From Mytilus trossulus (Eukaryota): a stretch of DNA of 64,000 nt. The notes under the pieces were generated by a model. The model was not told where the DNA came from. It saw only the letters and a list, made by a program, of their open reading frames with translations, and searched no databases. Below, piece by piece: positions 1,812 through 45,300 of the stretch (position 1 is its first letter; every line of letters begins with the position of its first letter). The DNA lies in assembly GCF_036588685.1 (NCBI RefSeq), contig NC_086386.1, forward strand, positions 21,886,001 to 21,950,000, written 5' to 3'. The position numbers and the translations under genes were made by a program.

Positions 1812-2060
1812 TCATCTAATATTTACGCTTCCGTTGAAAACTTTATTGTAAACTATAGACATTGTCATACATAATTGTTTTTATGATATCTTTATTTGTA
1901 GTGGCAGTATACGCAGTTATTATGCTTTAATCACAAATCAGAAAAAAAACATTAAATTTAAAAGTTGATTTTATTCAAGTTTATAATTAAAACAGAAAAC
2001 AAATGCGCAGAGTACAAATTTAAAAACGCTAGTAACTACAACTGTATACACACGTTATTC

Positions 2061-21200: not shown

Positions 21201-24200
21201 GGGTTCAGCTGAACATTCGTATAATATACCAACCAATGATCTTACCCTGGATTTAGAACGAAGCTTAATAATTCCTACATTTATCTAAAATCTCTTTGAT
21301 CTTTTGATTTTATCAGAACGATAATTTACAATAGTCTTAAATATGCAGGAAATGTGTGCCACTCAGTGGAGTAAACAGTTGTTAAAATATAATCACAACT
21401 TGCGATATATATATTACATCTAGTGCAAAAATCTATAAAAATGGGGCATTTATTCATTAAATTTGGTTCAAATTTCCATCTTCAATGTTTTTGCGTATAT
21501 AATTAATGATAACTCGCGTTAATCCATCAATCACTCAATCGGCACACATTAGCCTGGGATCCGACCCAATCTAGCTGCGCGTCGTATACTGACAAGATTA
21601 GCAAGGACCCCAGGCTAGGCACACATATGCAGATGTAAGGTAACGGAATCCGCCGAGGTTTGCCGATTGCTGTTTCCTAAGAATTTATCACAACTTTCGA
21701 TTTCTTCGTTTATTTCCGTAATCCCGAAAGCAACCGAGAATGACAATATTGTAAGGCACCGCACGCTGGTATGTAAATAACGTGCCATGTTTCAAGCTAA
21801 TTAACATGTCATTAAATTGCGCGCGGCATCGCAGACTAAACGTTTGAAGACGGGTCGTAGTACTTCCTGTCAATATAATACTTCCATGATTTGACTAAAA
21901 ATTATTGACCGGCATTGAATTTTTTGTACTTTTTATAGTTTAGAATACAGTAGTTGTTTTCATGATATTTTAAGAGTGTCAGAGAAATCATACTAAATTT
22001 TATTCGCATTGTTTAAAATAACCAAAATTAGTCTTTTTTTGTTAAAAATGATGCTATTTTATTTGAAATTTTTTGAGAATTAAAATACATAAAACTTTTA
22101 TTTTTGGGGAATTAGAATGCAGTTATTGATTTATTTTGATACAAATTATTAACCGTCATATAATTTCAGTACTTTTTGTACATCAGGATTGGCTGTTATT
22201 AAAAAAATATGCCTACTTTAAGGAAAAAAATATTAAAGTTTTGTATGCGTTGCCTAAAATGCAAATATTCCTTCATATTACAAAAAATTATTGACCGCCA
22301 TTGGATTTTTGTACTTTTTATAGATTAGAATAGGTTTTTTTTTCATGAAATTAAAAGAGTGTCAGATAATCTTACTTTAATTTTATTTGCATTGTTTGAA
22401 ATATCCAAAATTAGTCTTCTTATTATAAATTTTTTTAAAACTTCGATTGTGACAGGAATATAGAAAGTCTGTGATTATGATAAGAATTTATGATGATAAG
22501 GATACAAAAATTTTAAATATTGAAAAAAACTAAACATCTTTCATTAACTGATCTTTTCATTTTACTTTTCCCCGAGTATGTTTGTCAAATAATAAAATCA
22601 AAATCGCGATGTAGACACCGTTTTAGAACCCGACGGGTTTGAAAATATATAACCTAAATAAAACAAAAAGACCATTCTTTTATAATAATATTTATGTTAG
22701 GTTTTATCTGTACATTTCTTTTCAATAAAACTTTGCTAAATAATTACTAATAAGGCAAAATGTATCATCATGATCATTGAACGTTCGATTATCTCTAGTC
22801 GCCATTTTAATTAAACTAAACGAAACTTAGATTCTCTAATTTGTATTAGTTTATCATGTGACGTATTACAGGTCAATCCGTCACCAAGGTCGATCGGTTC
22901 TATCCGTCCGATCAGTCAATTACTTTTACTATGATCTGACGGATTGCTGGCGTGAGTTTGACGCGAATTTGACTGATCGGTGACTGATCGATGACCGCTG
23001 ATTGATCGCTGAAATAGTAACGCCTAAGGTTGCAAGTACTGTAGTTGTAAAATAAATGTTGATTGTTGATAATTGATTTTTTTTTTCTACATTTGCTTTT
23101 TCTGTGACAAATTAGACGGTACGATGTTAAAATCGTTATGATCCCTTGTTTGTTTTTCTGCGAAACTCACGCTTAATGCAATAGAGGATAATTAATAAAA
23201 TATGTATAAACTAAAAAATAAAACATTTCTATGAAAAAGCTGCTCAAAACTCAAAAGTATGACAGCTCTTGTCAGAACCTAGAAAAGTCAAGAATCTGTT
23301 CACTTCAGTTACCTTACTATTTTTGTATGAATTGTTTTACATACGTTTTTGTCAGTACAGTGACCTGTTTTCGTTACTTATATTACATCAACTCAATTAA
23401 TCTCTGGTGGATAGTTTTGTAGTATAGGGATTTTTTCCTTGTCAAAGTTTGGACTTAAATAAAAGAAAGTATTTTTCCTACCACTCATTAAAACCCCTTT
23501 TGTTACCTCAGTTTTAATAGCAGAGTTTTGAATATTGACATGATCAATATTGTGAGTAGTAAGAAACAGATACTACATGCAAGACCTGTTGGTGACCTTC
23601 TGCTGTTGTTTTTTCTATGGTCAGTTTGTTGTCTCTTTGACACATTCCCAATTTCCATTCTCAATTTCAATAACATAGATCCAAAAACCAACAAACGAAT
23701 AATCAACAACTTAAAGGTTACATTACTGCATTGGATAGTGATAAAACCAGAGTAAGATATAACAGGAATGCGTAGATGTGAAACAGAGAGCAAGTATTGA
23801 CAATAAATTACATACTCCTAAATTGAGTGACATACACATTAAAAGATAACACAAACGTTATCGGTTAAACAGTTTGTTATGAAAGTGTAGTAAACATTTA
23901 AAAACGCAAACAAATATCTTATTTTGTGAAACTATTGAAAAGTACAGCAATTTTCAATAAACAGACAGATGGTAACTAACAAAATAATACAAAGAACATA
24001 ATAAAACGTTCCTCCGGTATCCGATGAGAATGACAGTAAAAGCAATAAAAATATGATGTAATAGCAATAAACGAACCTTCCATAAAATTTGCATCTGTGT
24101 GAAATGTACCAAGCGTCATGTTCACCAATTGTTTCTGTGCATTTCCATCCACTATCGATGAGACAACACGCTTTCTTTATCCCGCAAAACGAATAATAAG

Positions 24201-27200
24201 ATGCCAAAGGTCCAAAACTGTGCTTGCACTCTGTTTGACTTGATTTATTGGCTAAATATTGTAAATAATAGTTATTTAACACATATAGGTTATATTATAA
24301 GGAGATATTAAATAAGTTACGTATAGAAAAAGAAACATATGGAACAAACGATACATTTTGCGAAGCATATTTTTCCAATTTTAGTGTTGCCACATGGTCT
24401 GCATAACGGTTAAAGATTCCCAATCTTCAACCCCAAATTAAAGAAAGAAGAAAATAGAACACCTTTGTATGGTAAGAGATAAAATTTAAAGACCATTATG
24501 AATAAACAAATTAGTTGAAAATCATGTGTTATAAAGGGACAGGTCAGCATATCTAACTCCTTATAAGACAGAAAAAGATCAAGAAATCAACGACAAAGAG
24601 ACAAGTATATTGGTTTTTTTTTTTGGTAACGGATTCTCTATAACACCCAATGTATTCTCTATAACACCCAAACAGTATTGACTTTTCGTATTGACTTTTA
24701 CTAGGAATTTAGTATTTTGTGATTTTGCTGTTCCAAAAAACACTCTAATGAAATGTTTCTAAAATATGCATCCCTTGAGAGACAATAATTGTTAAAATAC
24801 TAATAAAGCACATCATCAAATAGTACTGTTTATGTTTGCAGTTCATTATGGAAACACCTACTCTTTAACATGGTATCTTACAACAGAGTAGTCCCTTGTA
24901 ACTATATAATCGTAATGGCCTTTTATGACATTTGAATCAATACCCTTTTACCCCTTCCACAATTGAATGTGACTCGAAGATTGGTTAAGAAAAACAAACT
25001 ATTGCTGACGGACAGAAGTACTGTCACCACGTGTCTTTCGCAAATTTCATCAATTTCATTACAAAAATAAATAAATAGATATTGGCATGTGACTCAATCT
25101 GCATTGACAGACTTTCCTATCTTAATACTCACATACTCATAAAATTGTGGATGAAAAAAGTCATATTACGAAAACGATGTGAATTTATTTCCGTAATTAT
25201 TTACTGTAAATTTTAGTAAACTGAACATGTTACTAGAATGATATACAAAAGAGATATCTTTACTTTTAAATGAGAAGACCTCATTTTGAGAAGACCTCAT
25301 TTTGTGTATCGCTTCTATCACCTCCACAATAAATTATTCATTATATCTCTGTGTCATGTAGGTACCAAGCGTAGTCGCATTTGTCATCCATTCTAAGGAT
25401 TATTCAGTTTGGTTTTTTTAGGGGGAGAAAAGCGAAAAAAAGGCGTACATATATTGTTTCCGTCATCGGACTGACTTTTAAGTCATAGACGGGTCTCCCG
25501 CTTAGGACCATTTTCAAAGGGCTGTAATAAAACAAAGTGCACCACCATATGATGTTTTCTTCTCCAATTACTTTGTTATAGTCTTATAAACACAAAAATC
25601 AGGTTAAGAAAAATTGTTAAATTCTAGAAATGTTTGGCTCCTCAGAGGTGTTTATCCTTAAATCTACAAACAAAATAAATCCCTGACTGGGATTCAAACT
25701 CGTGCAATACTAACAAAAATAACCATTGACAGAAGCCTGACACAAATATTGTTTAGTTTGAAAAATAGTTGTTTTTTCTATACAAAAAATAATGAAATTA
25801 TTGTGTTATTTCATTCCACAGATTATTATACCTCAGTATGTTTTTTCTTTATAAGAAAATAATGAAATAGTTGTGCTATTTCATTCCACAGCATTCCACA
25901 GACTATTTGCCATTCAAAAGTTTCAAAGACTATAACCCCGGTTAATAGTTTCATAATCATCTTTCCCGTACTTTTTCATACTTATTTTTCATTGGACAAT
26001 TTCACTATTTTCACTATTTTGCTCTGCAACGTCAAACCCTAATATTGTAAACAGTATAATCTGTTTGTGTCGATTTTACTACAATAAGCAATTACATCTA
26101 TAAAAGAGAAAAATCTTCTCGCGCATTTTTAAATATCTAAAATATAGAACCTTAATCATAATATGGATTCGGTCGTAATATTCTAAAAGTGATTTTGTGT
26201 TTGGTGTGCTTTACTTTTTCTTTTGTTAATTGCAATTAATGAAATATTTTCAAATACAATAATAACTATAATGTGATGTTCAGTATAATAAAACACCTAA
26301 TGACTGTTTGTGCTGGTAAGAGCAATATTTGGTATCTGAGGGACAACGAACTTGATATTACCCTCACACCCAGTCAATAGGTGTATACTATTTGCAAGCC
26401 AATAGTTTCAAAGACAATACCCCGGTTAATAGTTTCATCAACATATTTCCCGTACTTTTTCATACTTATTTTTCATTGGACAGTAATGACGTCACAAACT
26501 TTTTCACTTGAAATTTTGCACTTGGCAACGTCAATATGATATCGTTTGTTTTTTTAATTCTTCTGTGTCCGTTCTAGTTTAAAATTAAATATCACTTACC
26601 ATAGGCAGTAAAAAAAAAGAATAAGAAAAATCTTCATGACGAATTCTTTAAAGATCTAAATATATAGTAAACTGTATTATATCATTTAGGGGTCTGTGTT
26701 CAGTACTTTAGCTAGTCTAGAAGAATTCATTTTCTTACATGGGAGTTTTTTCTAGTCTTGACTCTTGATTAAAGGAAATGAAATATCTATAAATAAAACA
26801 ACCAAAACTATAAAAACAAAATATTGTTCATCATGTGCGGAATGTTTATGTGACATTTTTCTTTTCTTTCAGACGAGTTATGTAAACCTTTTCTTAAAAC
26901 TGATTTGTTCAATATAATAAAACATCTAATGACTGGTTGTGTGGGTAATAGCAAGTTGTTTGTCCCTTATCATACCAGGTATCTTAAGACAACAAAGTTG
27001 CTATTACCCACACAATAAGTGTATAATATTATACAGAAAAAAATATCTGCGTAACATGAATTTTCTAAAATTTTAAACAAAAATTAAACTTGCTTTGATC
27101 GTTTGATTATAATTATTATTTGATTATCTTACGTATATATATAACTACCTAAACTATTCATGGTAATGATAATTTAATATAATGTGATAACTTGTTTCAA

Positions 27201-27600
27201 ACCATTGATATACTTCCTTGAAACGAGATGAATAGTAAATATTGAATACCAGAATTACCATTCTAAGGAAGAACAAAAACATAAGGCTATGTCCTGCATA
27301 GTAGCGATTTAACATTTAGTAGATCTCGTATCTGTGAATCCTAAGTGTTATTTATTTTCAACATTGCAATTAACAGTTCAGAGGACAAACATATGTACGT
27401 GCATGTAGTATATAGTATACCAATTAGCTATTCCAAAGTTAAAGGCAATGTTAGCTACCGTTAAATTTATTTTTATGTTGTAACACTCCTATTTATACAG
27501 TACAACTTATAATTTACTTGCATATGTATTCATTCAATAAAAGTTAATGCTTACCGTTGGCAGTGAAGATTATGCAGAGAATTACACATTGTAGAAACAT
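15292..27600 (-). CDS. Gene B: single-pass membrane protein, six-Cys ectodomain, PPxY tail, 306 aa; complement(join(15292..15725,16047..16201,16866..16976,24077..24251,27555..27600))
   Basis: Exons of 46+175+111+155+434 = 921 nt give an open frame; GT-AG introns, phases 1,2,2,1. Signal peptide MFLQCVILCIIFTANA; ectodomain C-x13-C-x5-CC-x7-C-x15-C; TM LFRILPAVIVVAMIIFVCVCCCL; basic RKQRRMRLKNRRR; NPPAYEAI and SPPAYEDI. Confidence 0.85.
19260..19500 (+). repeat. Interspersed repeat (AAAAGTAAAATCACAAAAATA family)
   Basis: Homologous to 45207-45400 (+) and 50870-51010 (-). Confidence 0.75.
20436..21888. mobile_element. 1453-bp non-autonomous DNA transposon, possibly P-superfamily, in intron 2 of gene B
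   Basis: Perfect 25-bp TIR CATGGAAGTATTATATTGACAGGAA (34 bp with 2 mismatches); 7-bp TSD ATTTGAC (20429-20435, 21889-21895); a paralogous empty site lies at ~22245-22320. Confidence 0.85.
25915..27030. repeat. Diverged local tandem duplication (~490 and ~620 bp units) in intron 1 of gene B
   Basis: 25921-26000 matches 26406-26482, and 26275-26390 matches 26905-27030. Confidence 0.75.
26600..26637 (-). other. Candidate alternative signal-peptide exon 1 of gene B, out of frame by one T as assembled
   Basis: ATGAAGATTTTTCTTATTC-T9-ACTGCCTATG|GTAAGT. With T8 it reads MKIFLILFFTAY plus a phase-1 donor; its 3' end resembles exon 1 of B (TTCACTGCCAACG|GTAAGC). Confidence 0.45.
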
Positions 27601-28974
27601 GGTTGATTTAGAAATGTTTTATTTTGTTCAAATACACATATATATTTAAACATAAAACATGATTATTCGGAAACATACTAATTGTAATTAATATGGATTG
27701 GTACATTAAAATACCTATCAACTGTTGCTATTATATATATTAAGGAGAACAGGATGTCCTTGTTGTTCAAAAGCACTATAAAGTCACGTGGATAATTTGT
27801 ATTTGTTTACAGTTATCATAAATACAGTCTCCATGAGAAGATAACAACGAGACATTCAAACACCATTACTCGAATAGAAACAGACCAATACCTGTGTATG
27901 ACAAAAACAAAAGCTAGTTGACAAACAGCAGTCATAAAAAACTGGACTATTGAGAATAGTAAATCCTATTAAACTCATTTAGTTCAAAACCCAACACATT
28001 AATATAAATGGTATTACCCTTGAACCGATAACATTTATATAAGTTAGTCAAAGATGTTATAAAATACATCAATCAATTTGTTAATGCTTATTTGTTGTTA
28101 AGATTTGCAGTTTTATAGACGCTATGTACAGTCACTGAAAAGAATGTCTTTTTAAAAAAAGTTATTTGTTTATGTTTTTTTTTGCATAAACAATAAACTG
28201 TATATTCCAAAGAATTTATCAAATGTATGCTTCAACAATGTACACAAATATGCCTAAGGTCTCGACAAGTATGTACGTGAATGTTTTTTTGTATTTAACA
28301 TTAAATTAGGATCGCCATTTCCAATTACACTCTAGGATATTGTCATCAATCTATTTCTACAATGTATGGAAACAGATCACTTTGCAAATGTTTCAATTAC
28401 ATTTTGCTTTTAAAATATATATGCTAGAACAATTTAGGCCAATTTGATTTTTTTTATTACCATTTACAGATTAATATTATGCTACAATTTCTGATCTCTC
28501 TTAAGAATGCTGCCGATTTCAAATTTATAAGTGTAATTAATAAAGCTTTGTTGACGGGGGTTTTGATTCATTATTTCAATCTACGTTCCGGTACATCCAT
28601 AGCGACAGTGGTCGTCAAAACGGAAACTCTTACTTGAACAATAATGTCATTTTATTGTCATACTATGCACTTGTAAACGAGGAAACAATTAGAAAAAATA
28701 TGAATCATTTTAAATTGTATGAAAACCCAATACTATGACAGGTATTGACGAATAAATATTCCAACATTCAAATGGCTTTATAATCGAACGTTTTGTAATA
28801 AAGAAAGAACCACATACACCTGAGGTCAATTTTGCTTTGGTAAACAGGAACATAGATTTCATAATAATTGTTGGATTACGTACAATTTAAATCAGAAAAG
28901 ATATGTTATCATGTCAGTCTAAAGCCCTTAACCTAACTGTAAGACTCGGGCAATCGATGTCCAACATCATAATT

Positions 28975-29532
28975 AGGAGAAGGTCCGGTAAGGGCCGATT
29001 TTAGCGTCATATTTCAGGTTCATATAACGAAAGATTTTGGACACTTTTAAAACATTTAAGAGTTTATTTCAATTGATTCAATTACTTGATGTGAAAGATT
29101 TTAACTGATTTAGTCATTACAAACGCTCCGATTCAAGCTCAAATATGACAAATCTATCAAATATGCAAAATACGTCATTTGTCAGATTGTTTTTGTTAAA
29201 AATGAAAGTGGCCGCGTTCGTGTTTATCCTCAACCTTAATATATGTCATGTATTATCGTCAAATACAACTAACATTTCAATATTATAAATGAACACGAAT
29301 GTGGCCACTTTCATTTAAGACGGAAATTCTCAAATTATGACGATATCAGTTTTTTAGCATGACATAATGATGCTAGTATCCGATATATGTACATTGTATT
29401 GTTAAAAACATCCCATATTTTTGTAGCAGAAGCATTATACTTTCCAGTAAATAGCTAAAAGATTACATTTTCAGAATTTTGTAAAACTGCTATATTTTTG
29501 GACCAAAAGGGGGTCTTACTGAACCAACTTTT
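28975..29532. mobile_element. MITE inserted in the left arm only
   Basis: Imperfect TIRs AGGAGAAGGTCCGGTAAG / CTTACTGAACCAACTTT; internal inverted repeat AATGAAAGTGGCC...GGCCACTTTCATT; absent at the equivalent right-arm site (~32835). Confidence 0.75.
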
Positions 29533-30039
29533 TTTCCCAGTGTTAGAAATCAAAACAAACTTAATGAATATAGTGCATATTTTTAGAATAACATTAACTA
29601 TCGTTCATTTGTACTAAACAATTGAAATTCAGAGATGTATGGCTGCTTGAACAATTACACAAAAACATTTAGAGAAAAACCTTATGCATAATCAATCTTA
29701 GGTCAACTTTCTGGACCGAGTGAGAATCTTAGTTTCAAATATAAACTCATCTTCCCTTAGGAATAATTTAAGAATAATGTTATAAATATTGGTATTGCTA
29801 GGCTCGCATTGTGCCTTTGCTTCGCTTTATGTATATTTTTATAAAATGAGTTAAAGAATATCAAGAGTGATTACGACCGATACATGCTTACTACAATAGA
29901 GATAACCATATAATATATTGACTTTAAATTATAAATAATCGTACAAGGTACAATATTCGACAGAAGTGATAAAATGTATCCATACGAAAAATATGAAAGT
30001 AGAGACAAAACTTATCCAGGTCATTCAGTGTATAGACAT

Positions 30040-30870
30040 AAGTACCGTAGAATTTTCTTGATATGCTGCTGAAATTAACCAAAAGGAACTAAGCAATAAC
30101 GGTCGTTTCAAGATATTTCAAATAACATCAGAAAATCTTCACAAACGTTTTCCAATAGATGGATGATTTTTCTTTCCCTATTGTCAAGTTCAGACCGTGA
30201 TTTTCCTCCTTAAGTCGGTATTTAGTATTTCCTTACTGGTTTGGTATGATTGTGTTAGTAGTGATGTTTTAGATTACAATGAGCGAAATCTCTGCATTAC
30301 TTGTAAATTTTAAATCGGGGATTTTCGTCACCATAACTTTTAAATTTTTTTAATAATTCTTCAATAGTTAAAAAGATTTTGTCTTCAAGTTTGGATGTTT
30401 CCGAAAAAATAACTTATTTCAAACGGATTAACACATTCTTAATCTCATGTTGATTTTGGAAACCAAGCCAGAAAATTTAAATACGATTGTTTTATTGTCA
30501 TAGACATTTATTTATAAAAAAAGAAGATGTGGTATGTATGTAATATGTAAAATGGTTCTAATTTTACTGATATTATCAGTAAATTAAAACCATTTTACAT
30601 ATTACATACATACCACAACTTCTTTTTTATATGCATACTAGTATGCACTTCCACTGTATCACAGTTATATCTTTGACACATATAGTTCGATATTGCACAC
30701 TATCGTGACTTGTACTATTAATGACGAATCCAAATACATTGGATGTTGTGAGCTGATATTTTGACATATTTTGTTGTTATTTGCTTTGATTTATCTTTCA
30801 GTTATTGCGAGTACACTGAGATATTTGATTACTGTCTTTTGTTGTGGAAATTTTTTATTGTTCTTTGTTT
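30040..30870 (+). mobile_element. Heavily decayed Penelope-like RT relic, mirrored at ~31680-32400 on the - strand
   Basis: GATGATTTTTCTTTCCCTATTGTCAAGTTC encodes DDFSFPIVKF, homologous to the 1203-1811 RT. Its 3' part matches 960-1140. Confidence 0.6.
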
Positions 30871-33800
30871 GTTTCTGGCACACTACTGTCGTCCTAGGTG
30901 AAGGTGTGATGAGATCGTACAAACATATTTACCCCGCCAGTAAAACAACCTACCAAGGATGAATTCGAACAATGCATAGGGACATAAGAACATGAGAAAA
31001 GAAGAAAGAAAAAAGTCTGTTGTTACACCCACAGTGTTATTCATTGTGTCAATGAGTTGAATTTGGGGATTTAACATCAGGGATTAGAAGATGTGTAAAA
31101 TATTGCTGAACAAATGAATAATCAATCAGTACATATAAATACATTTATTCTAATGCATAAGCAAACAATATATACTTTACAACTTAAGGTCATTACTATT
31201 TTTTAAATCATATTCATCTACAAAACAAAAAATTATGAAATTCAATGCTATTTAAACGATTTTCTTAATTTGATTATTATAAATATACATTCTAAATAAT
31301 TTCAACCACTTTTTAAACAAAGAGTTAAACATCTGATAGCTGTTTAGTTTCTCGTGGTCTAAGGAATGTTTTCATTGGTATTTTTTTATTTTGTAGATGA
31401 TTGTGATTTAAAATAATTATGACTTTAAGTTGTAATGTAGATTTTGTTTGCTTATGTATTAGATTAAGATGTAGTGATTGATTATTTATTTGTTAAGCAA
31501 TATTTAACGTTTACAAAAGACACATCTTCTAATTCCTGATGCCTCATCCCAAAGTGACACTCGTTGACGCATTGAATAACACTGTGGGTGTCACTACAGA
31601 CTTTAATATGTTTTGTGACCCCATCACACATTAACCTGGGACGACAGTAGTGCTCAGTAACAAAAAAATGAACAATCTAAAATTTCCACAACAGTAGGCA
31701 AATATCTCAGAGTACTCGCAATTACTGAAAGCTATATCAAAGCAAATAACAACAAAATATGTCAAAATATCAGCACACAACATCCAATGTATTTAGTGTA
31801 AAGACGTCATTAATAGTACAAGTCAGAGAAAAACACAACAGTGTGCAATACCGAACTATATGTCTCAAGATATTGTGGTACTGTGGAAGTGCATGCTAGT
31901 ATATGTAATATTAGAAATGGTTTTAATTTACTGATAAAGAAATAATTATTTATGACAATATTATAAAACAATCGTATCTAAATTTCCTGGCTAGGTTAAC
32001 AACATCTCCATGTTTTTTTTTCAGAAACATCCAACTTGAAGATTAAATCTTTGTACCTATTGAAGAAATAAGAAAAATTTAAAGAAAATTGTGGTTAGGA
32101 AAATCCCTAACATTTACAAGTAATGCAGATATTACGCTCATTGTATTCTAAACCATCACTACAGACACGAGCATACCGAACCATTTAGGAAACATCAACA
32201 CCAAATTAAGATGCCGGATAAACATTACGGTTGGATATTGACAATAGGGAAAGAAAAATCATCCATATTTTGGAAAACGATGGTGTAGATTTTCTGATAA
32301 TATTTTGCAATATCTAAATCTAGATAACAACAGTTATTGATAAGTTCATCTTAGTGAATGTCAGCAGCATATCAAGAAAATTCTACGGTACTTATATCTA
32401 CCACACTGCGTTTTTGTCTCTGCTCATTCATATTGTTTTTATGAAATACACTTTATCAAGTCTGTCTAGCTGGTACGATTACGATTATTCATAATTGAAA
32501 GTAGTTATATTAACTCCTTTTACTCAAAATAAACAGAGCAAAGGTAGAGGCAGTACTAGTGGCAATACCATTAAGTTTGACACTTTTCTTAAATTGTTCC
32601 GATGGGTTGATTAGTTGATAATTAAAAAAAAAGATTCTTACTCGGTCCAGAAAGTTTACCTTAGATGGATAAGGCATTAAGTATTTCTTTAAATGTTTGT
32701 TTGTTATTGTTCAAGTATCCATACCTCTCTGGATTTCAATTGTTTAGTACAAATGAACGAGAGTTAACGGTGAAGGTTATTCTAGGAAAACACACCATAT
32801 TAATTAAGTTTATTTTGATTTCTGACACTGGGAAGATTTCTATTGGACATCAATTTCCCGCGTATTACATTTAGCTTAAGGGCTTAAGACCGACATGATA
32901 ACATGATTTATAGTGTGCTAAATCCAACAATTATTAAGAAACATATGTTCCTATTTACCAAAGCAAAATTGACCTCAGGTATATTTGGCTTTTCTTTATT
33001 ACAAAACTTTCGGCCATAAACCCTTTTAACGTTGGAGTATTCATTCGTCAATACCCGTATAGTATTGGGTTTTCCTACATTTTGAAGCGTTTTATATTTT
33101 TCCAATTGTATCCTCGTTAACAAATGCATAGTGTGACAATAGAATAACATTATTGTTCAAGTAAGAATTTCCGTTTTGACAAACACTGTCGTTATGGATG
33201 TACCGGAACGTATTTTGAAAACATGGATCAAAACCCTCGTTAACAAAGCTTTATTAGTTACACTTAAAAATTGAAACCGGCAGCATTCCAAAGAGAGAAT
33301 AGAAATTGTAACATAAAAATAGTCTGTGCATGGTTATAAAAAAATCAATTTGTTCTATATATAGGTCGTAATTCAACTGAATTCTTATGTTTGTTCTAGC
33401 ATATATATTTTTTCAAAGCAAAATGTAATTGAAACATTTGCAGAGTGATCTTTTTCCATACATTGTAGAAATAGATTGATGATACTATCCTAGAGTGTAA
33501 TTGGAAATAGCAATTCTAATTTATGTTAAATACAAAAAATACATTCACGTGCATACTTGTCGAGCCCGTAGGCATTTTTGTCTATATTGTTGAAGCATAT
33601 ATTTAATAAATTCTTTGGAAAATACAATTAATTGTTTTTGCAAACAAAACATAAACATATAACTTTTTTTTTTAAAAGACATTCTTTTTCAGTAACTATA
33701 CATACCGTCTATAAAACTATAAATATTATCGGTTTAAGGGTAATACAATTTACTGAGTTTGCTTTTAAACTTAATGAGTTTAATAGGATTTACTATTCTC

Positions 33801-34037
33801 AATAGTCATGTAATTTTTATGACTGCTGCTTGTCAGCTAGCATTTTTTTTTGTCATACACAGGTATTGTTTTTTTATTGTTGAAGAAATGGTGTTTGCTT
33901 GTCTCGTTGTTATCTTGTCATGGAAACTGTATTTATGATAGCTGGAAACAAATACAAATTTTCCACGTGACTTTTCAGTGCTTTTGAACAACAAGGACAT
34001 ACTGTTCTCCTTAATTTATTAAATATCAACAGTTGAT

Positions 34038-36474
34038 TATAAGTTATCATGCTTTGACCCAACTAACATGGTTATTTAGACGGTGTCGAAAATTGTTGAA
34101 CGGTGAGGACTCCGTCTAAATAATCATGCTAGTTGGGTCAAAGCATGATAACATTTTTCTGTGATTATGCTAACCGTACTAGGTATATAATTAATGAAAC
34201 GTTTAATACACAAGTGTCCTAGATTTCACTACTCAATATTAACATGTTAACTCCGCCCACTGACCTCACTCTTAATGTGTATCGTGTAACCTAATGATCT
34301 ATTGATTTTCCATGTAGTGCATAGTTCATGTGTTTTTATGCCAACTGAAGATGGAGTCTGGTAATAGACGATTTGTTGATACTAGTGATGAAGAAATTGA
34401 ACAAAAACGTTTGAAAATGAGTGCTGACAAAACAATAAAGCAGAATATAGCAGCAGCCACTATTTTCAGGGAGTATTTAAAAGTAAAGAAAATGGATCCT
34501 GGATTTGAACAGTATGACACCTTAAAACTAGATGCAGTGTTGGGTCATTTTTATATGGATGTGTGTAAAGCTGATGGCAATCCTTATAAAACAAATTCAC
34601 TGCAATGCTTGAGATACTCATTGAATAGATATTTTAAGGCTCCACCGTACAATAAAAAAATTGACATCGTGAATGATGAAAGTTTTAGCGCTTCCAGAGA
34701 AAATTTTAAAGCGGCAATGGCAGAACTTAAACGCATGGGATTTGGAGACGTTGAGCATTATCCGTCTATTGACGAAGCTGAAAGAAGAAAAATGTATACC
34801 TCAATATATTTATCACCAAATACTCCATTTTGACTTCAAAATAAAGTTCAGTTTGATATTCGCCTGTATTTTTGTAGACGGGGAATGGAAAATATGCCAT
34901 AAATGACAAAATCCACGTTTTCTGTAAAAAAAATATCCAAAGACGGGGATTAAATATGTGGTTAAAACTTTAGATGAGTTGACAAAAAACCATCGCAGCA
35001 GTGACAAAGAAAAAACGTCAGGGATAATGCCAGAAAATTCCGGTTCTGAATATTGCCCTGTGTCCTCCTTTGAAAAGTATGTAAACAAATTAAATCCAGA
35101 GTGTGACAAACTATGGCAGAGACCAAAAGATCAGTTTGAGGAAGAGGACCCTTTGTCGTATTATAACATTCCTGTGGGCGAAAAAACGCTTGGCAATTTC
35201 ATGTCATACCTGAGCAAGAAGTGCAACTTGTCTGAAATTTACACTAACCATTCAATCCGTGCTATCGGGGCTACTGTTCTAGCTAAAAACTCATATTGCA
35301 ATACACAGATCATGGCCGTAACTGGACATAAGTCAGTAGCATCCCTTTCTTTGTATTAGCGGGTTGATAATGATGATAAGATACGTATGGGACAGACGTT
35401 AACAGAAAGCATCACTGAACCTTCTAAACCATTAGCTTTAATTGCTGGTGAAACATCATCAAATATTCGTGCTTTACCAAGCTCAGTGCCTCCTAAAACT
35501 TTAGCAATTGGTCCTTCTTCTACAGTTCTTCCTCTACCGAATATCACAACAGCCAGCACCACACTTATGAGCACAGAACGTAGTTCCTTTACTTAAAACG
35601 TTGGACAAAAGACCCTGTATACATCTGCTAAGGAACACAAAGCGCCGACGTTGCCATTTAGTGGACCGTTGCCATGCAATACGTTTAAGCCAAAACATTT
35701 AAGTACAACCCAACATGGAAACAACACACAGTCATTTAATGAATCGCTGCAAGGTGTTAATCTAAATGAACTGTTTAACGATTTTCCTGAAACTGCCGTA
35801 AACATAAATCGTACTACACTTTGTCCACACGTTTTCAAAAACTGTTCCGTAACTATTGTTTATAAAAAAGAATGACTTCATTTTTAGAAGAACAGATCTG
35901 ATAGTTTTAGAACATATTTTTTTTTTACCATTTTGTTAAATGTGATCGGGAGCATTTAACTTTGTGTCATTCCATCGTATATTTTTTTTCTTATTTATAT
36001 TTTTCAGAGTTTTCTGGACGAAAAACTTTTTTTTTAAATCTGTTATTACTGTTTAGTTTGTATAATATAATACACAGATGTATAATAAATATATTTTATT
36101 TGAATTTCTCTAGATTTATAGAGCCATTGATTGTGTCATGCATGCATAGATGTCAACCAGTGGAAAATTCCACAAGCGGACAGGCTAATCAGTCAACTGG
36201 CCTTATGTAGGGCAATACACGAAGGTTATCACAAGACAGCGTGTACCTTACTTTGTTCTTTTATAGCACACATGATTTCAGGTCAATAGTTTAAGCACAT
36301 TGGTTAAAGGTCAACATATTACAATGCGATTTCTGATTGGCTACAGGCACATGTTTTGTAAGAAGGTTTCTTCTATTGGGACAATTTGATTGGGTTGTGT
36401 ACGCCGAACATGGTTATTTAGCAGATGGCAAGGCAACCAGTAGAAATCAAGTTTACAACTGCATAACCACACAA
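34038..36474 (+). mobile_element. Crypton-type DNA transposon with a decayed DUF3504-like tyrosine recombinase (coding ~34330-35875)
   Basis: Catalytic signature RRG...YTNHSIRA...IMAVTGHKSVASLSLY (R...HxxR...H...Y). In-frame stops at 34831, 34899, 35357 and 35594 and a frameshift near 34930. Boundaries are defined by the empty site GTTGAT^AGGTAT in the left arm. No TSD; 41-bp hairpin at 34043-34152. Confidence 0.88.
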
Positions 36475-36592
36475 AGGTATTTTAATGTACCAATCCATGT
36501 AAATTACAATTAGTTTGTTTCCGAATAATCATGTTTTATTTTTAAATATATATGCGCATTTGAAAGAAATAAAACATTCCCAAATATCAACC

Positions 36593-39500
36593 ATGTTTCT
36601 ACAATGTATAATACTCTGCATAATCTACACTGCCCACGGTAAGCCTATATCAAATATAATGTTAATTGAATGGATAACGCAAGTAAATCATAATTTGTAC
36701 TGAATAAATTGGAGTATTACAAAATAAAAACTAAATTTAACGGTCGCTAGCATTGCCTTTAACTTTGGAAATAGCTAATTGGTATAATATATGCACGTTA
36801 AAAGCTATGATTGAATAATATTGTGAATAATTTTCAACAGAATAAAAATTAAATTGAATGTCAGGCCAGGTTTGTATGAGGCCAAGTCGCGATACTTACT
36901 TTTTCATTATCTGTTGCGTTCAAAATACAAAGAATTAATACTTGCAGACATTGATCAAGTAATGTTACTTTACTTCATTTAGATAAGTCTACAACTGATA
37001 TCTTTAAAGAGATCTACACACAACTTACATGTATGTGAAGTCCCTTAAAGATCTCCCTATTTAAAATGATTTTTTTTCAATAAAGCTTCCTTATTCTTTG
37101 TTAAAGACACAACAACAAAATCCCTCATAAGAAACTTCCTGTTACAGTAATTAAATCCGACTTGTGAAAGCAATGGAGACTAATATGTTTTCGGCAATAT
37201 TTTTTTTTTTACTTTTGTAATTTGATTTCTTTATCATCTGGTAAGTGAGACTACAATTTAATTCATGTCGTGTTCAAAACAAATGTAAATGATAATCGTT
37301 TATAGACATTTATTCGAGCGGTAATGTACTGCACTTTCTAGAAGATGTTAACATAGGTTTGGACTGTGTAAATAATTTGATTGCAACACATTATGCATAA
37401 TATACAACCATTTTTTATTAGTTGAGATAGATAAATTGGGTATTGAGTTATGCCACACACCAAACAAAACATGTTCACTCAAATAGTTATTCATTATGAT
37501 TACTATTTTCGAAAACATTTAGAAGTTGTCCACACAGAATTGCACGTATGAAAAACATCTCAAAACATATATTACTAATGTGGCAAATACAAGAGTCCGT
37601 AAACTGAAAGCTAATTTCTCGCGTTCTTTCAGTAGTCATCTTATCGCAATTAGCTTAAACATATTTATTTATAGTTGATTGGGAAGCAAGTTTTGCAACG
37701 TATAGTAATCCCTTTCCACTGTGCAGGTACGAGTGCTGCCTTATAGCGGCATCAGCCTGCTCATTTTCGAAATCTACAAGGGTGTCTTTAACGTGCAAGA
37801 GATATGGCTCTCTCTTAACACGGGTCAGTCATTTGTCGTCCCCTTCCGACGAACTATCATCGTTTCCTTAAGACCATACTTGCAGATGGTGTCAAAGGAG
37901 AGCCAAAAATTGAGTTCATGAAATTTTCATCCCGAACGGGAATCGAACCAGGAACCTTTGTGTTAGTAGTCCGATGCACTAACCTCTAAACCACGGCTCG
38001 CTATCTTATCACAATTGAATAGGGAGAGAATACATTTACTGTACGTTTACCCTTCAACATGTTTGTGCTGCTACAAAGTAAGCATCAGAAAGAGATCATC
38101 TTAAAATTGCTATCAGGAACGAAACTATCACTGACTTCTGTTTCAGAGGTTCACAATATTGAGCAGCTTTTTTATATTCTGTTTCGAAGCAGTGTTTGGA
38201 ATTTCTAAAATGTATTTTTGAAATTGCAATACGAAAGAAACTTCAAATACAAATCGAAAATATGGTTTGCAAAATGGTCACGTCTTACATATATTTATTA
38301 CCAAGGAATTCTGGACTTCATAACAACCTAACTTTCTACTTCCTTTTGCTATTTGCAGCTCAGGCGCCGGGTAGGATAACATTATGTGAGTACATATCGT
38401 CGACTGAATTATATTATTGTTCAATAATAGAAGAATGTTGTTACGTCAATGGTGAATGGAGATGCATAAACCAACTCAACAGCGCTTTCCATGGCGATTC
38501 TGGAAACCAACCAAAATGTGAAAAGTATAAAAAAAATCTTTTAATATTATCATACTTTCTAAAAAAAAATTTTACCATGAAACGAACTTTTTATTTAGTT
38601 CTCTCTTATTTTGTTCTTTCGTTAATTGATTTTATCGTGCTGGTCTGCAACATGCTTGTATGTGATAAGATATGAAGCATCCTTTAAAATAGCATTGTAG
38701 AATCCTCAAGACTCATTCTTTGTAATCCAATACTTTTCTGATATTAGCTATTTCTCTCAACACAAATTTTTTTATACTTGAGGGGTTACGTGAGCGATTG
38801 TGACAGGAGTAAAATGGTTGTGTTGGTAAACAATTTCAGGCAACTTCTCCAATTTTTGAATCACAAATTTTAACATGTCTAAAAGCGAACGTTATTTTTT
38901 GTTATCTATCTTGCAATGGATTATGAAATTACGAAATTACCATCCAGTTTTGGTATTTCAAAAGGATGAATATGATTTTGCCATAAGAGAAATAATAGTT
39001 TGCATTATTGAAGCAATCAAATCTTTCTAACACTCATTTGAATTTTAATTTTGACAATTTACATCTTTTACATACATATTATTCTAATCTAGATTTAATT
39101 GGATTACGTTTAAGTTCATCGCATGTCATAGTAATACAATTTTAAGACCATCAATGACAATTGTTGCATTTCATTTTTTGTTTAATTTATTTAACTTTCT
39201 AATTGGAAAAACACACTTTTTAAAACTGCAATTCAAATTTCATAATTTCAGAAAATCGACGCGGTCAATAGACCCTTCGACGATAAACACATATTCAAGA
39301 GATAACTCTGATGAGAAGACAAGTTCTGGAACTATTGTGTAAGGAAAGAGTTCACAAATCAAATTAGAAATACATTGGTTTTAAGCTAGAATTTAAATGA
39401 CGTGAAAAATATCGTAGGCTACACTACTTATAAGTACAACTCGATGCAGATATAAGCGCATTAACGCATCCCAGGCTTTCAAACTGTCCAAGTAAAGTCA

Positions 39501-41054
39501 ACCTTAGAAGATGTTTTTATTCCGTTTTGGTTCTCCCTTGTCCTTTGTCATATCGTTTCTAATGTTGCAGTGTATTTACAACTCACTGTGTTACAACTGT
39601 CACATTTACGAAACAATTATTAAACAAAGCTTTTTGATATAGTAACTACTTGTGTCGATCTGATTCAAGCCGTGTTTATATGGTTTTGCATGTATCTGTA
39701 TGTGAATGAAATACACACATACTCTCATAAAATAGAATTCTTTAAATTAGAAAAATACTGAACACCAAGGAAAATAAAATATAACGCTTTCCGGACGCAA
39801 TCTTATGTGACGTTGACGGTGAATGCTATTTTAAATGTTAATATCATTTTCATTAATGTCACATCTGTTATATCTGATTAGTGTCAAATAATGTATACTT
39901 GGACTATTTTCGGTCTTTTAAACCTAAACTATAATTTGAAGTTTTCAAACACAATAAGGATTTGGATAAAACAATGAACTTTTTTTTCGTTTTAGCCCGA
40001 TTGTGATTCCTTTCGTATTGATCATCTCCTGTGGTATGTCTTTCTGCCGATACTACGTGTGGAACAAAAAAGCCAAGAAACGAAAAATCATACGTTTACA
40101 ACAATCAAGGACCGTTAGACCAATCAGCGAACAAACACAGTACCGTATTTTGGGTAAGAGTTATTTGTTCTATACTTACAGGTTGGAAAAGTTTTTGTTT
40201 TAACAAAACATTTTGCTGCAATCTTTACTTTAGAGATATACACTGTCGACATGTGCATCTGGTTTCAGAACAATTGATACCTTTAATGTTATCATATAGC
40301 ACCAGAACTACAACCGATTACAATCAATACTACTATTGATCATTTTAGGTACACTGGTAATTTCAAAATACATCTATGTTTAAAATAATTGCATGTAATT
40401 TTATCCCTTTTTTTATCGAATACTTTTATAACAGATTACAGTTGTATGTTTATTATCATTTAAAAAAAGAAGATACTTTTATCGGTTCTTACGTAAATCA
40501 TACATCGAAGTAAAAGCAATTCATGAATGAGGACATTATTAATTGAAAAGTAACATAATAAAGGAAACAAGACCAAACAAAATAAACGTTTCTGAAATTA
40601 AAATCACAAAATAAAAAAACCCATTACAAACGAATATACAGAAGATACAAATACATTCATGCATATACATATAAGAAAGTATAGAGTAGCCAAATTTAGT
40701 TAAATAGTAATTATTCTTACATCAGATTTGTACCATGATAATGGGAATTCAGCTGCTATTATCGCAAATCCTGAGACACAGGGTGGGTGTCTAAATGATG
40801 GGGAAAGGCTTGACACTTCCACCTTAGAAAACAACAATGGAGATTACTTACAAGACGATACAACCTATACTCCCACTGTTAATCCACCAGCATACGAAGA
40901 TATTATAAACCGAAATGTAGCTGCCATTGATTCCGTTGATCCAAGGACACACAGATCAGTTGACGTAGAAGGGCTTGCCAATTCTACCATAAGCAACGAC
41001 TATGTAACTACAGCATCTATACCCAAAGTCAAGCAGCATACAGCTATCTTATAA
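36593..41054 (+). CDS. Gene C: single-pass membrane protein, six-Cys ectodomain, one PPxY; join(36593..36638,38359..38524,39252..39338,39996..40153,40726..41054) = 261 aa using the B-type exon 1
   Basis: 46+166+87+158+329 = 786 nt open; GT-AG introns, phases 1,2,2,1. Ectodomain C-x10-C-x5-CC-x7-C-x17-C; TM GTIVPIVIPFVLIISCGMSFC, then RYYVWNKKAKKRK; NPPAYEDI. Which first exon is used is uncertain. Confidence 0.8.
37010..37172 (+). promoter_or_regulatory. Putative native promoter/5' UTR of gene C with an ETS-type site (ACTTCCTGT, 37134-37142)
   Basis: Conserved with the region upstream of gene A (7592-7765). Confidence 0.5.
37173..37240 (+). other. Native (A-type) signal-peptide exon 1 of gene C, frameshifted by one extra T as assembled
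   Basis: Homologous to gene A exon 1, including the donor TCATCTG|GTAAGTGAGAC. T11 (37200-37210) gives TAA at 37218; T10 would give METNMFSAIFFFYFCNLISLSS plus a phase-1 donor. Confidence 0.75.
37652..38002 (-). mobile_element. tRNA-derived SINE with a Meta-domain-like core, in intron 1 of gene C
   Basis: Head GAGCCGTGGTTTAGAGGTTAG (A box) ... GGTTCGATTCCC (B box); internal CTTGCACGTTAAAGA; 14-bp TSD ATCTTATC(G/A)CAATT (37638-37651, 38003-38016). Confidence 0.82.
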
Positions 41055-41114
41055 AGGAATAATGTGTATGCACTTGTATTGCTTTACGATTTGGCATACT
41101 TTTGTGCGTATTTT

Positions 41115-42378
41115 GTTTTGTGTCTGAGTCATTAACTTTAATACAATCAATTTTCAAATTATAAATTGATTTTTTTCTAATTTTCTTTAGTACTCTAGTT
41201 ATATTAATCAAAATATATAAACTACTAAATATAATATTGTCATAACGGTAATTCTCTACAGCTAAGTTAATACATGTTATCTGATATTAACACACAAGTA
41301 TTCATAAACAAGTACAGCGTTTGTGGTTAATGAATGGACTAATCTACATTTATAATATTTCAGAAATAGACATATTGTCATCCTTTTTTTTTAGCAAAAT
41401 AGCATGAAACATATTGTGAAAATATAAATAGCAACCATTGAACAACGCCATGGCCAATATCTGATATAACGATAAAATCAAAACATGTGTCTTAATAATG
41501 CAACCTTCATTTTTATTTTTCGTTAAAATGCTTTTGTTGCATTTAAGCGAGTAATATTTGCCACTCGACGTTAAAAATAACAATCCTTTGATCTAAAACG
41601 GCCAATCAAAGAAATGATGATTTGATTAATTAGAATATAAACAACCTTTTACTGGATTACAAACATACATGTGCAGACCTGAAAGCTGATTATCCAAATA
41701 ACTCTACCTCTATCTAACTTTTGATTTTTGTTTACAGTTTCACAAGTTTTGTGTCTGAGTCATTAACTTTAATACAATCAATTTTCAAATTATAAATTGA
41801 TTTTTTCTAATTTTCTTTAGTACTCTAGTTATATTAATCAAAATATATAAACTACTAAATATAATATTGTCATAACGGTAATTCTCTACAGCTAAGTTAA
41901 TACATGTTATCTGATATTAACACACAAGTATTCATAAACAAGTACAGCGTTTGTGGTTAATGAATGGACTAATCTACATTTATAATATTTCAGAAATAGA
42001 CATATTGTCATCCTTTTTTTTTAGCAAAATAGCATGAAACATATTGTGAAAATATAAATAGCAACCATTGAACAACGCCATGGCCAAGATCTGATATAAC
42101 GATAAAATCAAAACATGTGTCTTAATAATGCAACCTTCATTTTTATTTTTCGTTAAAATGCTTTTGTTGCATTTAAGCGAGTAATATTTGCCACTCGACG
42201 TTAAAAATAACAATCCTTTGATCTAAAACGGCCAATCAAAGAAATGATGATTTGATTAATTAGAATATAAACAACCTTTTACTGGATTACAAACATACAT
42301 GTGCAGACCTGAAAGCTGATTATCCAAATAACTCTACCTCTATCTAACTTTTGATTTTTGTTTACAGTTTCACAAGTT
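41115..42378. repeat. Near-perfect tandem duplication of ~630 bp just downstream of the gene C stop codon
   Basis: I found only one substitution (GCCAATAT/GCCAAGAT) and one T-run length difference between the copies; GTT microhomology at the junction. Confidence 0.95.
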
Positions 42379-45300
42379 AAAATTACGTTTGATTATCTGA
42401 AATATAAATCAAATTATTCAACTTATTTTACTTAGTTCTATCATGAGTACTTTCAATTCAAATATTTCCAGTACATATTTTATTTTATGAAAAATGACAA
42501 TACAGGACAGGTATGGTTACTAGAAATGCATTTCTGTTGCTTATGATTCACAAGAAGTCATCAAGCGTTGACGGTCTTTTGTCACTATTAGAAAATGTGC
42601 ATATCTTCTGTTATCAATTTGTAAAGATCATAATTGTCTTACTGTCATGTTAGCGGTCCTTGGTAGTATTTCATGTTAAATGTTGTATATCAAACTGGTA
42701 CTTTATCCTTATGTACATATTCAACAAAAATAAAAATAAAACATTCTTGTTTATAGTTAACGTATTAACATTTTAGCATATATCATCGTTATAACATATG
42801 CCCAGCCTAACTTTAACATTCTCTCTATAGATCAGGAAGTTCTATGTTATTCAAGTGGCCAAGTGGTCCGCAGAAGTCTGTTACAACATACTTTAGTATC
42901 AAAATGGCACTTTGAGACCATCATACTAAATTAAAAAAACGGTTTGCTCAAATTCCTTTTATAAGTATCCGTACTTACAATCCAACTTACTTTGTTCTAA
43001 ATTCCATGAGAATTTGAAGATCATTCAGATCTATCTTACCCATCACTACCATTTCCGTTAATACTTTAAATTGATTGCAATCAAATATTATTGACTTTGA
43101 AAGATAATGATTGTGTTTGTCATTCTTAAGGTCACCGGTAGTCTGTTGCAACATATTTTGAAAATATACTTCATGCTATTCCTGTTTTTTTTTTTAATAT
43201 TTTGCATCAATATCTGAGTTTTAGTTCTGTTGTCTTTGTTTCGCTCAGCTTTGAACCTTATTGTTTTGTTTTCATTGGTTTAAAAAAAAAATTAAATAAC
43301 AAGAAAGAAGTCTCAAACCATAGTCGAAGAAAAACAGATGACAGCATGATCAAGGCGAAAAGTTAGGACACAAACAAAACGTCTTAAAATACTATACCGA
43401 AGTGTACGAATACTACATAAACAAGTAATGTGATTGCAGTTGACCAGGAATGGTATTCAATCTTAATTAATCTGAATCATTAATTTTCTGAAAATATTTA
43501 ATAAAACAACTTATAAAGTATATAATAATGCTCTAACATAACAAGGAATAAGACGGATTAGAATTTCAAACGTGACGTCACTTTGTGCGTTGAGGCTTCG
43601 GCTAACTCGTAGTATTTTTTGTGCTGGATTATGTTTTTGTATGTTATGTATCCGTTTTTATTCTTTAGTTAGTCACCACTTCAATTTTATCGTATTCAGT
43701 CATTTTATAAAATTTACTGTTTGCAAAAGTATGAATTATTCTAAATAATGAGGATGTTCTTATCCCAGGCAAAAGACCCTAGCCGTATTGGGCACAACTT
43801 TTTTGAACTGTTGGTCCTCAGTGCTGTTCAACTTTGTACTTGTTTTAGCTTTCGAACTTTTTTCATCCGAGCGTCACTAGTATGTGTTGTGTGGACTTAA
43901 CACACGTCTGACGTATTAAATTTTAAACCTGGTACCCTTTGTTAGCTATTATTCGTATATTTCTCAGGCCTATGTGTTTTCCCATTTATTTGAATTGTAG
44001 TCCCGTCATGTAATTTTGTTATTTTGATGTTATATTTAACATTGTCATAAATGCAGGAGGTTCGGCATGCCACAAAACCAGATTCAACCCACCATTTTAA
44101 GATTTTTTTTCTTTAAATGACCTTTACCAAGTCAGGAAAATGGCCATTGCTATATTATAGTTCGGTTTATTTTGTGTGTTACATTTTACAAATATTTATT
44201 ATTGTTTTCCTGTTGTGTCGTTGTTCTCTTCTTATATTTGATGCGTTTCTTTCAGTTTTAGTTTGTTACCCGGATTTGTTTTTTTCTCAAACGATTTATA
44301 CGTTTCAAACAGAGATATACTACTGTTGCCTTTATTTGATATCAAAAGCGCATGATACAAACAGTTATCATTTGAACATCGAACGAGAATAAACTTCGTT
44401 TCTTGTCTCTCCACATCGGAAAACTATTTTTTTTACAAATTATAGCTTTTCTATTCATTACACTTTCTTGTAAATATGGCTGAACATAAATATTATCCAA
44501 CCAATAAAAGCAAAATGATCCCCATTTACAGACGATGTTTTCATTATAAGGCTGCATTTTAACCTATATCGCATGAGAAGCAGTTTAAAATGGTAAAAAA
44601 GACCCTCGGCCTATAAACGATAAATCTATTTAATTTTTTACATCCAAATATTCAAACTTCAGAATATATTTAGAATGTATTTAAATTGTATGATTTTTTG
44701 GAAGTATGATATATATTATAACCGTATGTTAGGTGGGCTAGGCGTCTTTTTGAAAAATGTCAGTGTGTCATTATCTGCTAGAGTCAGAGAAACATTTCTA
44801 TTGCTTTCGTGTCTTTTTTTATATATACTATTTTTTTTACTATCAAGCTTTTCAATTGACTGAAAAGTTTTGAATATCTTGTGCTAACTTCGCACACATC
44901 GTTTAGATTAAAATACAGGTGTTTAGAATGTTAATATAATTTATCCAATACATATTATTTTCGCACACAAAATCTTGCAAAAACACAAATTGATTTCAAA
45001 AACACATTATTTTAAAATGACATGCGAACCACTTAATTAAAAGAAGTTGTTATCTAAACATGGGTTTGGTTTAACATTTTAACTTTGAAATCGATTATGA
45101 ATGATTTTATTAACAGTTTTTGAATTATCGGTGTGTTGCACTTAAACACTACAGAGAAAAATTTTGGGTCGTTTTAGGGAAATAAGAAATTGTTGTATAA
45201 TGTTTAAAAAAAGTAAAATCACAAAAATACTGAACTCCGAGTAAAATTCAATTGCAAAGTCACTAATCACATGACAAAACTCATCAAACGAATGGACAAC

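Follow-up and report, generated by a model that had tools for sequence, protein, structure and literature searches.

An inverted copy of a paralogue's 5' end upstream of a Mytilus trossulus gene, and its possible use as an alternative first exon

Does a gene make use of a neighbour's 5' end that has been copied, in mirror image, in front of it? The question is raised by a stretch of 64,000 nt from Mytilus trossulus (NCBI RefSeq assembly GCF_036588685.1, contig NC_086386.1, positions 21,886,001 to 21,950,000; hereafter the window, numbered from its first letter), in which gene B on the reverse strand and its relative gene C on the forward strand face each other across two inverted arms. The left arm contains the first exon of B, and the right arm places a copy of that exon upstream of C. 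We judge the chances to be even that some animals or tissues use this copy as an optional first exon of C. The chief alternative, which we consider quite possible if short of probable, is that the copied exon is inert: C would be made from its native promoter and exon 1, an 11-T run in that exon would be due to an assembly error or to a rare null allele, and chance alone would have kept the copied exon open. Four of the 24 listed runs (X15, X17, X21 and X24) were aligned to positions 23900-41110, with X15 and X17 only presumed to be RNA, and the joints listed from these alignments are 15 of 29.

An earlier note on the window, made from the letters alone, had described a quasi-palindrome at this place, and five colinear inverted BLAST blocks (identities with gaps 71-86%) bear it out. 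A piecewise alignment of the reverse complement of 31232-27397 with 31378-36798 gave 2,856 ungapped columns with 86.8% identity and 63 gaps. The arms and spacer are laid out as follows.

27397-31232, reverse strand: left arm, with the B upstream region, exon 1 and the first 158 bp of intron 1; likely the source copy
28971-29534, no strand assigned: 565-bp repeat in the left arm only, multi-copy as judged by high depth in all four RNA runs
31233-31377, no strand assigned: single-copy spacer of ~145 bp
31378-34037, forward strand: inner part of the right arm, a copy of the distal upstream region of B
36475-36798, forward strand: outer part of the right arm, with CCAAT-like and TATA-like motifs (by eye), the copied exon and 160 bp of copied intron 1

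The inverted arms around a short spacer therefore stand as the note had them, with amended figures: the shared sequence is ~2.9-3.0 kb and not 3.3 kb, the substitution divergence is 13% and not 20%, and the spacer exceeds the ~130 bp claimed. The arms run past the exon-1 donor by 158 bp on the left and 160 bp on the right, in agreement with the note's placement of their end ~160 bp inside intron 1 of B.

Two inverted copies around a short single-copy spacer are what a fold-back event leaves, and the arms' spacer fits such an origin. The self-complementarity of the spacer was at shuffle level with no residue of it, and no microhomology could be read at its edge between arms 13% diverged. The second junction lies in front of C, beside the following feature.

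36839-37172, forward strand: native proximal promoter of C, of the type of gene A, truncated upstream at the arm junction

The right arm ends at 36798, ~40 bp before the point (36839-36842) where C begins to resemble gene A and a decayed family member, remnant D. A and D are alike for ~880 bp upstream of exon 1, which is ~440 bp beyond the point where the likeness of C stops; this further ~440 bp of A and D is absent from C and matches neither arm. Since the likeness of C stops ~40 bp from the arm end and that between A and D continues, the arm replaced the distal upstream DNA of C, and such a loss beyond the second junction is again that of fold-back events. B intron 1 past the arm end showed no match to 36799-38358 (score 40, shuffle maximum 49). 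Compared with A, the promoter and exon-1 region of C scored 246, and compared with the B region 26550-27400 it scored 57; the shuffle maxima were 59 and 67.

At the DNA level, the locus is thus a B head joined to an A-type promoter and body. The note had called it a B-head/A-body chimera, which holds for the promoter, for the transmembrane (TM) exon (31/52 residues identical between C and A, 14/46 between C and B) and for the last exon (59/105 against 49/96). It does not extend to exon 2, which is comparable only with B (12/51 identical); no Cys-rich exon 2 was found in gene A (4676-7507, reverse strand). The further claim that the duplication created the head-to-head pair was not borne out, in that remnant D shares the strand of C and the head-to-head orientation may therefore predate the duplication.

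The event is a small inverted partial duplication of known kind, old and local, that probably arose by fold-back or template switching. Synthesis would have turned back at the spacer, copied ~3 kb of the 5' end of B in reverse and rejoined ~370 bp upstream of the ATG of C, within its promoter, with the DNA between being lost, as the layout suggests. The fold-back inverted duplications of Hermetz et al. 2014 (PMC3907307), in the portion of that paper available, share the inverted copies, the unduplicated spacer, the second junction and the distal loss. Those events are megabase-sized, de novo and mostly terminal, with spacers of 766-70,466 bp and 2-8 bp of inverted microhomology, whereas here the arms are of 3 kb, interstitial and 13% diverged around a spacer of 145 bp. 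The inversion-breakpoint duplicates of Drosophila mojavensis (Guillen and Ruiz 2012, PMC3355041, as excerpted) are likewise kilobase-sized, inverted and single-copy, with partial genes and altered promoters, but they flank a large inverted segment; only if the spacer were itself that segment could the same route apply to arms 145 bp apart. In Drosophila Hun (PMC1463047, available part), too, a partial duplicate carrying the 5' part of a gene became fused to other sequence at the DNA level, with no RNA intermediate; Hun, however, moved to another chromosome, recruited intergenic DNA and is expressed, whereas the present copy is joined to an adjacent paralogue of which only the leader would change.

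The exons concerned are these.

36593-36638, forward strand: copied signal-peptide-like exon MFLQCIILCIIYTAH, 46 nt, phase 1, donor GTAAGC
27555-27600, reverse strand: gene B exon 1 MFLQCVILCIIFTAN, phase 1, donor GTAAGC, with a derived base at codons 6, 12 and 15
37173-37240, forward strand: native exon 1 of C, 68 nt, with an 11-T run at 37200-37210, out of frame as assembled
38359-38524, forward strand: exon 2 of C with six cysteines, phase 1 in and phase 2 out, spliced to exon 3 in RNA contigs

The copied exon is open with its donor intact, and its phase 1 fits the phase-1 acceptor of C exon 2 at 38359. Its ATG lies 580 bp upstream of the native ATG at 37173, and the intact, phase-compatible exon that the note had placed there is confirmed. 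A splice from 36638 to 38359 would skip native exon 1 and yield essentially the same mature protein with the leader of B, driven from a core promoter derived from B. With the mature protein essentially unaltered, what would change is the site and timing of C production, not the structure of C.

The note does not mention either arm's insertion or the frameshift in native exon 1 of C. Between the ATG and the distal part of the right arm lies the second of these insertions, with the following parts.

34038-36474, forward strand: broken CryptonA-like element of 2,437 bp, in the right arm only, ending 118 bp upstream of the copied ATG
34318-34833 and 34928-35596: pieces of the element's open reading frame (ORF)
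34043-34087/34108-34152: 45-bp inverted repeat, 93% complementary, forming a subterminal hairpin
34065 and 36407: 15-bp exact direct repeat near both element ends

The ORF matched the profiles DUF3504 (E = 2e-4), QRICH1 (E = 4e-4) and Phage_integrase (E = 2e-3), all below the curated cut-offs. Comparison with the empty site in the left arm showed no terminal inverted repeats (TIRs) and no long target-site duplication (TSD) at the element junctions. Like CryptonA (Kojima and Jurka 2011, PMC3212892, available sections), the element would have a single tyrosine-recombinase/DUF3504-like ORF, no TIRs, no clear TSD and an animal host; in the same sections animal Cryptons are reported without terminal repeats. 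It differs from CryptonA in being broken, in profile scores below the Pfam cut-offs and in its 45-bp hairpin and 15-bp repeat, and we regard it as CryptonA-like on these features. The hairpin, the 15-bp repeats or both may be recombinase sites. The element is overlain by RNA contigs that differ from it by 5-7%, and by raw reads.

The Crypton-like element would have inserted 118 bp upstream of the copied ATG after the duplication, or have been lost from the left arm. Such an insertion would have separated the distal part of the copy and left the CCAAT-like and TATA-like motifs beside the exon. In both copies these motifs, read by eye, stand between the element or its empty site and the ATG, and the core promoter may therefore still be attached. 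The idea that the element severs the copied exon from its promoter is weakened by the motifs in between.

The native first exon of C has its own difficulties. As assembled it contains an in-frame TAA, and from no other ATG does a frame stay open to exon 2; the 11-T run may be an assembly slip or a true allele. Exons 2-5 of C are open, an outcome with P ~0.001-0.01 at the indel rate of the arms, and are spliced; next to the closed route through native exon 1, this speaks for use of the copy. Public C-type models are only 54-77% identical to the C of the window in exons 2, 4 and 5, and we term them C-prime. Between C and C-prime (P0007), 29 of 54 residues agree in the ectodomain exon and 83 of 108 in the tail exon; the greater divergence of the ectodomain may reflect diversifying selection. 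In both X15 and X17 two versions are expressed, of which one is near-identical to the C of the window and the other more diverged, so that C and C-prime are paralogues or deep alleles. In X17, one contig of the C-prime type is one T shorter at 37201 and in frame (depth 8.2 of 92.8, among the 12 of 40 indel rows listed). That only a C-prime contig is listed with the shorter run speaks against an inert copy.

The MFLQ-type exon, as found in both arms, precedes a B-type exon 2 in M. coruscus CAC5370184.1, M. californianus XP_052076419.1 and M. edulis CAG2209386.1, and in X17 a contig of depth 24.3 has an exon of this type joined to B exon 2. On the evidence of these models it is the ancestral first exon of B. 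In M. coruscus the accession numbers of a B+A model and a C-type model lie close together and their contigs are equally long, which suggests an old cluster. Polarised by the three B-type models, the exon differences at codons 6, 12 and 15 (3/3 polarisable) are derived on the copy that belongs to B and ancestral on the C-side copy, and the fourth, at codon 7, is of ambiguous polarity. At equal rates a 3/3 outcome has a 1-in-8 chance. That all polarisable changes fall on the copy of B is a second point against an inert exon in front of C.

A third comes from X15. In this run both MFLQ bins are covered (depth 0.91 and 1.18); B exon 2 has no depth, nor has 37201 in native exon 1. Its exon-2 contig, which accounts for all depth of its bin, extends 33 letters 5' of 38358. 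Were these letters the copied exon, the 5' end of the contig would fall at 36605, with the copy-diagnostic site 36635 exactly 30 bases further on. The calculation uses figures from summary tables and presupposes that contigs break at 31-mers, and it amounts to a hint and not a junction; the same numbers could also be obtained from a diverged B-like paralogue, filtered records or 5' truncation.

Several points weigh against use of the copy. To read X15 as a branch in the assembly requires both copies to be identical over 36604-36634 in that animal, and they differ in the window. The arms differ at 4 of 46 positions in the exon and at 374 of 2,810 elsewhere (Fisher p = 0.51), and three of the four exon differences change a residue. 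The earlier note had pointed out that the exon stayed open despite the arm divergence and proposed comparing its substitution rate with the rest of the arm. The rate is no lower, and simulated drift kept the copied exon open in 41% of cases with half of the divergence placed on the copy and in 16% with all of it there, so openness is weak evidence and is readily accommodated by an inert exon. Promoter and exon taken together differ at 14 of 168 positions against 349 of 2,546 (p = 0.047 uncorrected), which an inert copy would explain as selection on the copy of B alone, and the transposon 118 bp upstream is likewise in keeping with it.

The public models point the same way. All four named full-length C-type models examined (XP_063414082.1, XP_071125304.1, CAG2227685.1 and CAC5370190.1) start with the native MET/MER exon, and an MFLQ head on a C-type body occurs in no protein among the 19 stored. 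Protein searches with C exon 2, which were weak, gave 0 matches at 96-2000 aa (two candidates) and none at 29-95 aa. One metagenome locus (L001, the single locus from 379 pattern matches) was set aside as a chance match, its DNA being unlike that of the window.

The RNA alignments were mostly unfavourable too. Spliced joints 38524-39252 and 39338-39997 were found in X15 and X17, and that of exons 4 and 5 in both of these runs and in X24 (16 reads). The note had proposed looking for reads that join 36638 to 38359; none is among the 15 of 29 joints listed from the four runs, depth excludes the joint in X17, X21 and X24, of which only X17 covers exon 2, and X15 offers its hint. In X17, the copied-exon bin has depth 1.95, equal to the contribution of the B contig alone (24.3 x 46 / 574 = 1.947), and window-type exon 2 stands at 13.6. 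X17 thus expresses a C-like exon 2 without room for the copied exon, and the full account of its depth by the B contig is the best evidence against use of the copy. In raw runs X21 and X24 neither the copied promoter and exon nor exon 2 has any depth, and these two runs are little informative. The sole first-exon join into C exon 2 among those listed is that of the native exon (X17, 37228-38385, depth 8.2), of C-prime type. We considered reading it as C itself and rejected this, the C-type models placing it with the diverged C-prime type.

Taking these points together, we hold optional use of the mirrored exon by C to be evenly balanced. A stronger form, in which native exon 1 of C is a true frameshift null on this haplotype, the mirrored B leader is the sole working start and other haplotypes keep C-prime, strikes us as doubtful; were it so, two divergently transcribed surface-protein genes would run on sister copies of one core promoter. 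Optional use, if true, would be a clean natural promoter-and-leader swap between paralogues by way of a conserved intron phase, and would link mussel structural variation to altered gene regulation; public mussel models still preserve the ancestral state. If the copy is silent, this is an ordinary small inverted duplication. What is unusual is the in-phase landing in front of an expressed paralogue whose leader is apparently broken. Among the papers listed by literature searches, none deals with this locus or with a Mytilus chimera of this sort.

Exchange between the arms after the duplication, by gene conversion or by a flip with crossover in the 160-bp intron stubs, would make the C-side exon ancestral by overwriting or swap, and we think it very unlikely. 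Identity does vary along the arms (19-49 mismatches per 238 columns, chi-square p = 0.002) and is highest at the outer end, where 36475-36798 is 90.6% identical to the left arm. Both exon copies also share the derived residues C5, I7 and T13 relative to the named B models, and the B exon of X17 aligned on the right arm. Against exchange, there is no tract near 100% identity and the trend along the arm is non-significant (Spearman p = 0.18). The X17 placement would be expected if a reference-type B exon is closer to the less-changed copy, and a flip of the whole block is unneeded to explain it.

An assembly artefact, whether from a read that folded back into a chimera or from head-to-head joining of two haplotypes, is scarcely credible: the arrangement at the spacer and at 36798 does rest on the assembly, and mussel genomes have many hemizygous regions (PMC7653742, available part), but a read chimera would be near-identical and not 13% diverged with 63 gaps and private insertions of 2,437 and 565 bp, the junction falls at the start of the A-type homology of C, and runs X2-X14 (DNA or unlabelled) hold 0.47-0.49 of the words of 36480-41110, or ~97.7% identity if even, which is above that between the arms.

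The window, which has a GC content of 31.6%, holds three related genes and one remnant.

2060-7568, reverse strand: gene A, with exon 1 at 7508-7568, stalk at 4558-4675, TM exon at ~3338-3498 and last exon at 2060-2392
~15292-27600, reverse strand: gene B, with exon 1 at 27555-27600
24077-24251, reverse strand: gene B exon 2 (Cys-rich), joined to the MFLQ-type exon in the X17 contig
near 20043-19891, 16990-16865, 16200-16045 and 15729-15295, reverse strand: later exons of gene B
37173-41054, forward strand: exons of gene C
39252-39338, forward strand: C exon 3 (stalk)
39996-40153, forward strand: C exon 4, a hydrophobic, TM-like segment and a basic stretch
40726-41054, forward strand: coding part of C exon 5, with a PPAY motif
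45524-48369, forward strand as for C: remnant D, with an A-type upstream region, a decayed exon 1 (ATG and donor lost) and a decayed TM exon

In A, B and C alike, exon 1 is signal-peptide-like and ends in phase 1, a later exon is hydrophobic and the tail carries PPAY; the six-cysteine exon 2 is present in B and C. All named sequence relatives of these genes are Mytilus proteins. From their predicted products, they would form a small Mytilus family of single-pass proteins with a signal peptide, a Cys-rich part and PPxY, whose ectodomains change fast, nameless in the records examined.

The Shisa-like STMC6 proteins (Shisa, WBP1, VOPP1, CYYR1 and TMEM92; PMC5578492, in the part available) share with them a signal-peptide-like start, a six-cysteine ectodomain, a single hydrophobic segment and a PPxY tail. 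In translation, the hydrophobic exon 4 and the PPAY in exon 5 occur in A, B and C, giving the TM segment and PY motif of that group. The majority of STMC6 proteins have C*C*CC*CC after the signal peptide (same source), and the cysteines of C exon 2 depart from this with C*C*CC*C*C, the last pair 17 residues apart. No Pfam family was found at cut-off; WBP-1 reached E = 0.006 and 0.064, below cut-off, in two of four full-length relatives. The Atlas neighbours of P0007 were WBP1-like, CYYR1, VOPP1 and Shisa clusters at 0.79-0.84, below 0.9, and are leads only. The architecture thus resembles that of a Shisa/WBP1/VOPP1-type adaptor by analogy, and membership is not claimed, given the differing cysteine pattern and no profile at cut-off.

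Smaller observations concern the individual genes. Public models of A from M. edulis and M. coruscus cover later exons only and are likewise without the Cys-rich exon. In B intron 1, a second signal-peptide-like look-alike exon (26600-26637, reverse strand) has the donor GTAAGT and is left in phase 2 by a run of 9 T, and its joint to B exon 2 is not among the joints listed; an ancestor of B with two first exons was considered and rejected, as 26600-26637 is not homologous to the A-type promoter (score 57-61, shuffle maxima 60-67). The last exon of B (15295-15723, reverse strand) holds an internal tandem repeat of ~165 bp that yields two PPAY motifs, as in the M. edulis model.

In intron 1 of C, 37650-38003 is a multi-copy repeat with very high depth in all four RNA runs, its 3' part tRNA-like by eye. 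An X17 contig (depth 5.1) spanning 38524-39997 omits C exon 3 with the frame preserved. Directly after the C stop codon, 41115-42378 holds two tandem copies of ~631 bp, 99.7% identical, which are either a very recent 3'-end duplication or an assembly artefact. Around D, inverted matches of ~250 bp and 88% (45998-46244 / 51001-51257 and 45256-45504 / 50752-51010) cover part of its upstream region and are possibly a second small inverted duplication in the cluster. At the end of the window, 62001-64000 has a GC content of up to 42% and a strong strand skew.

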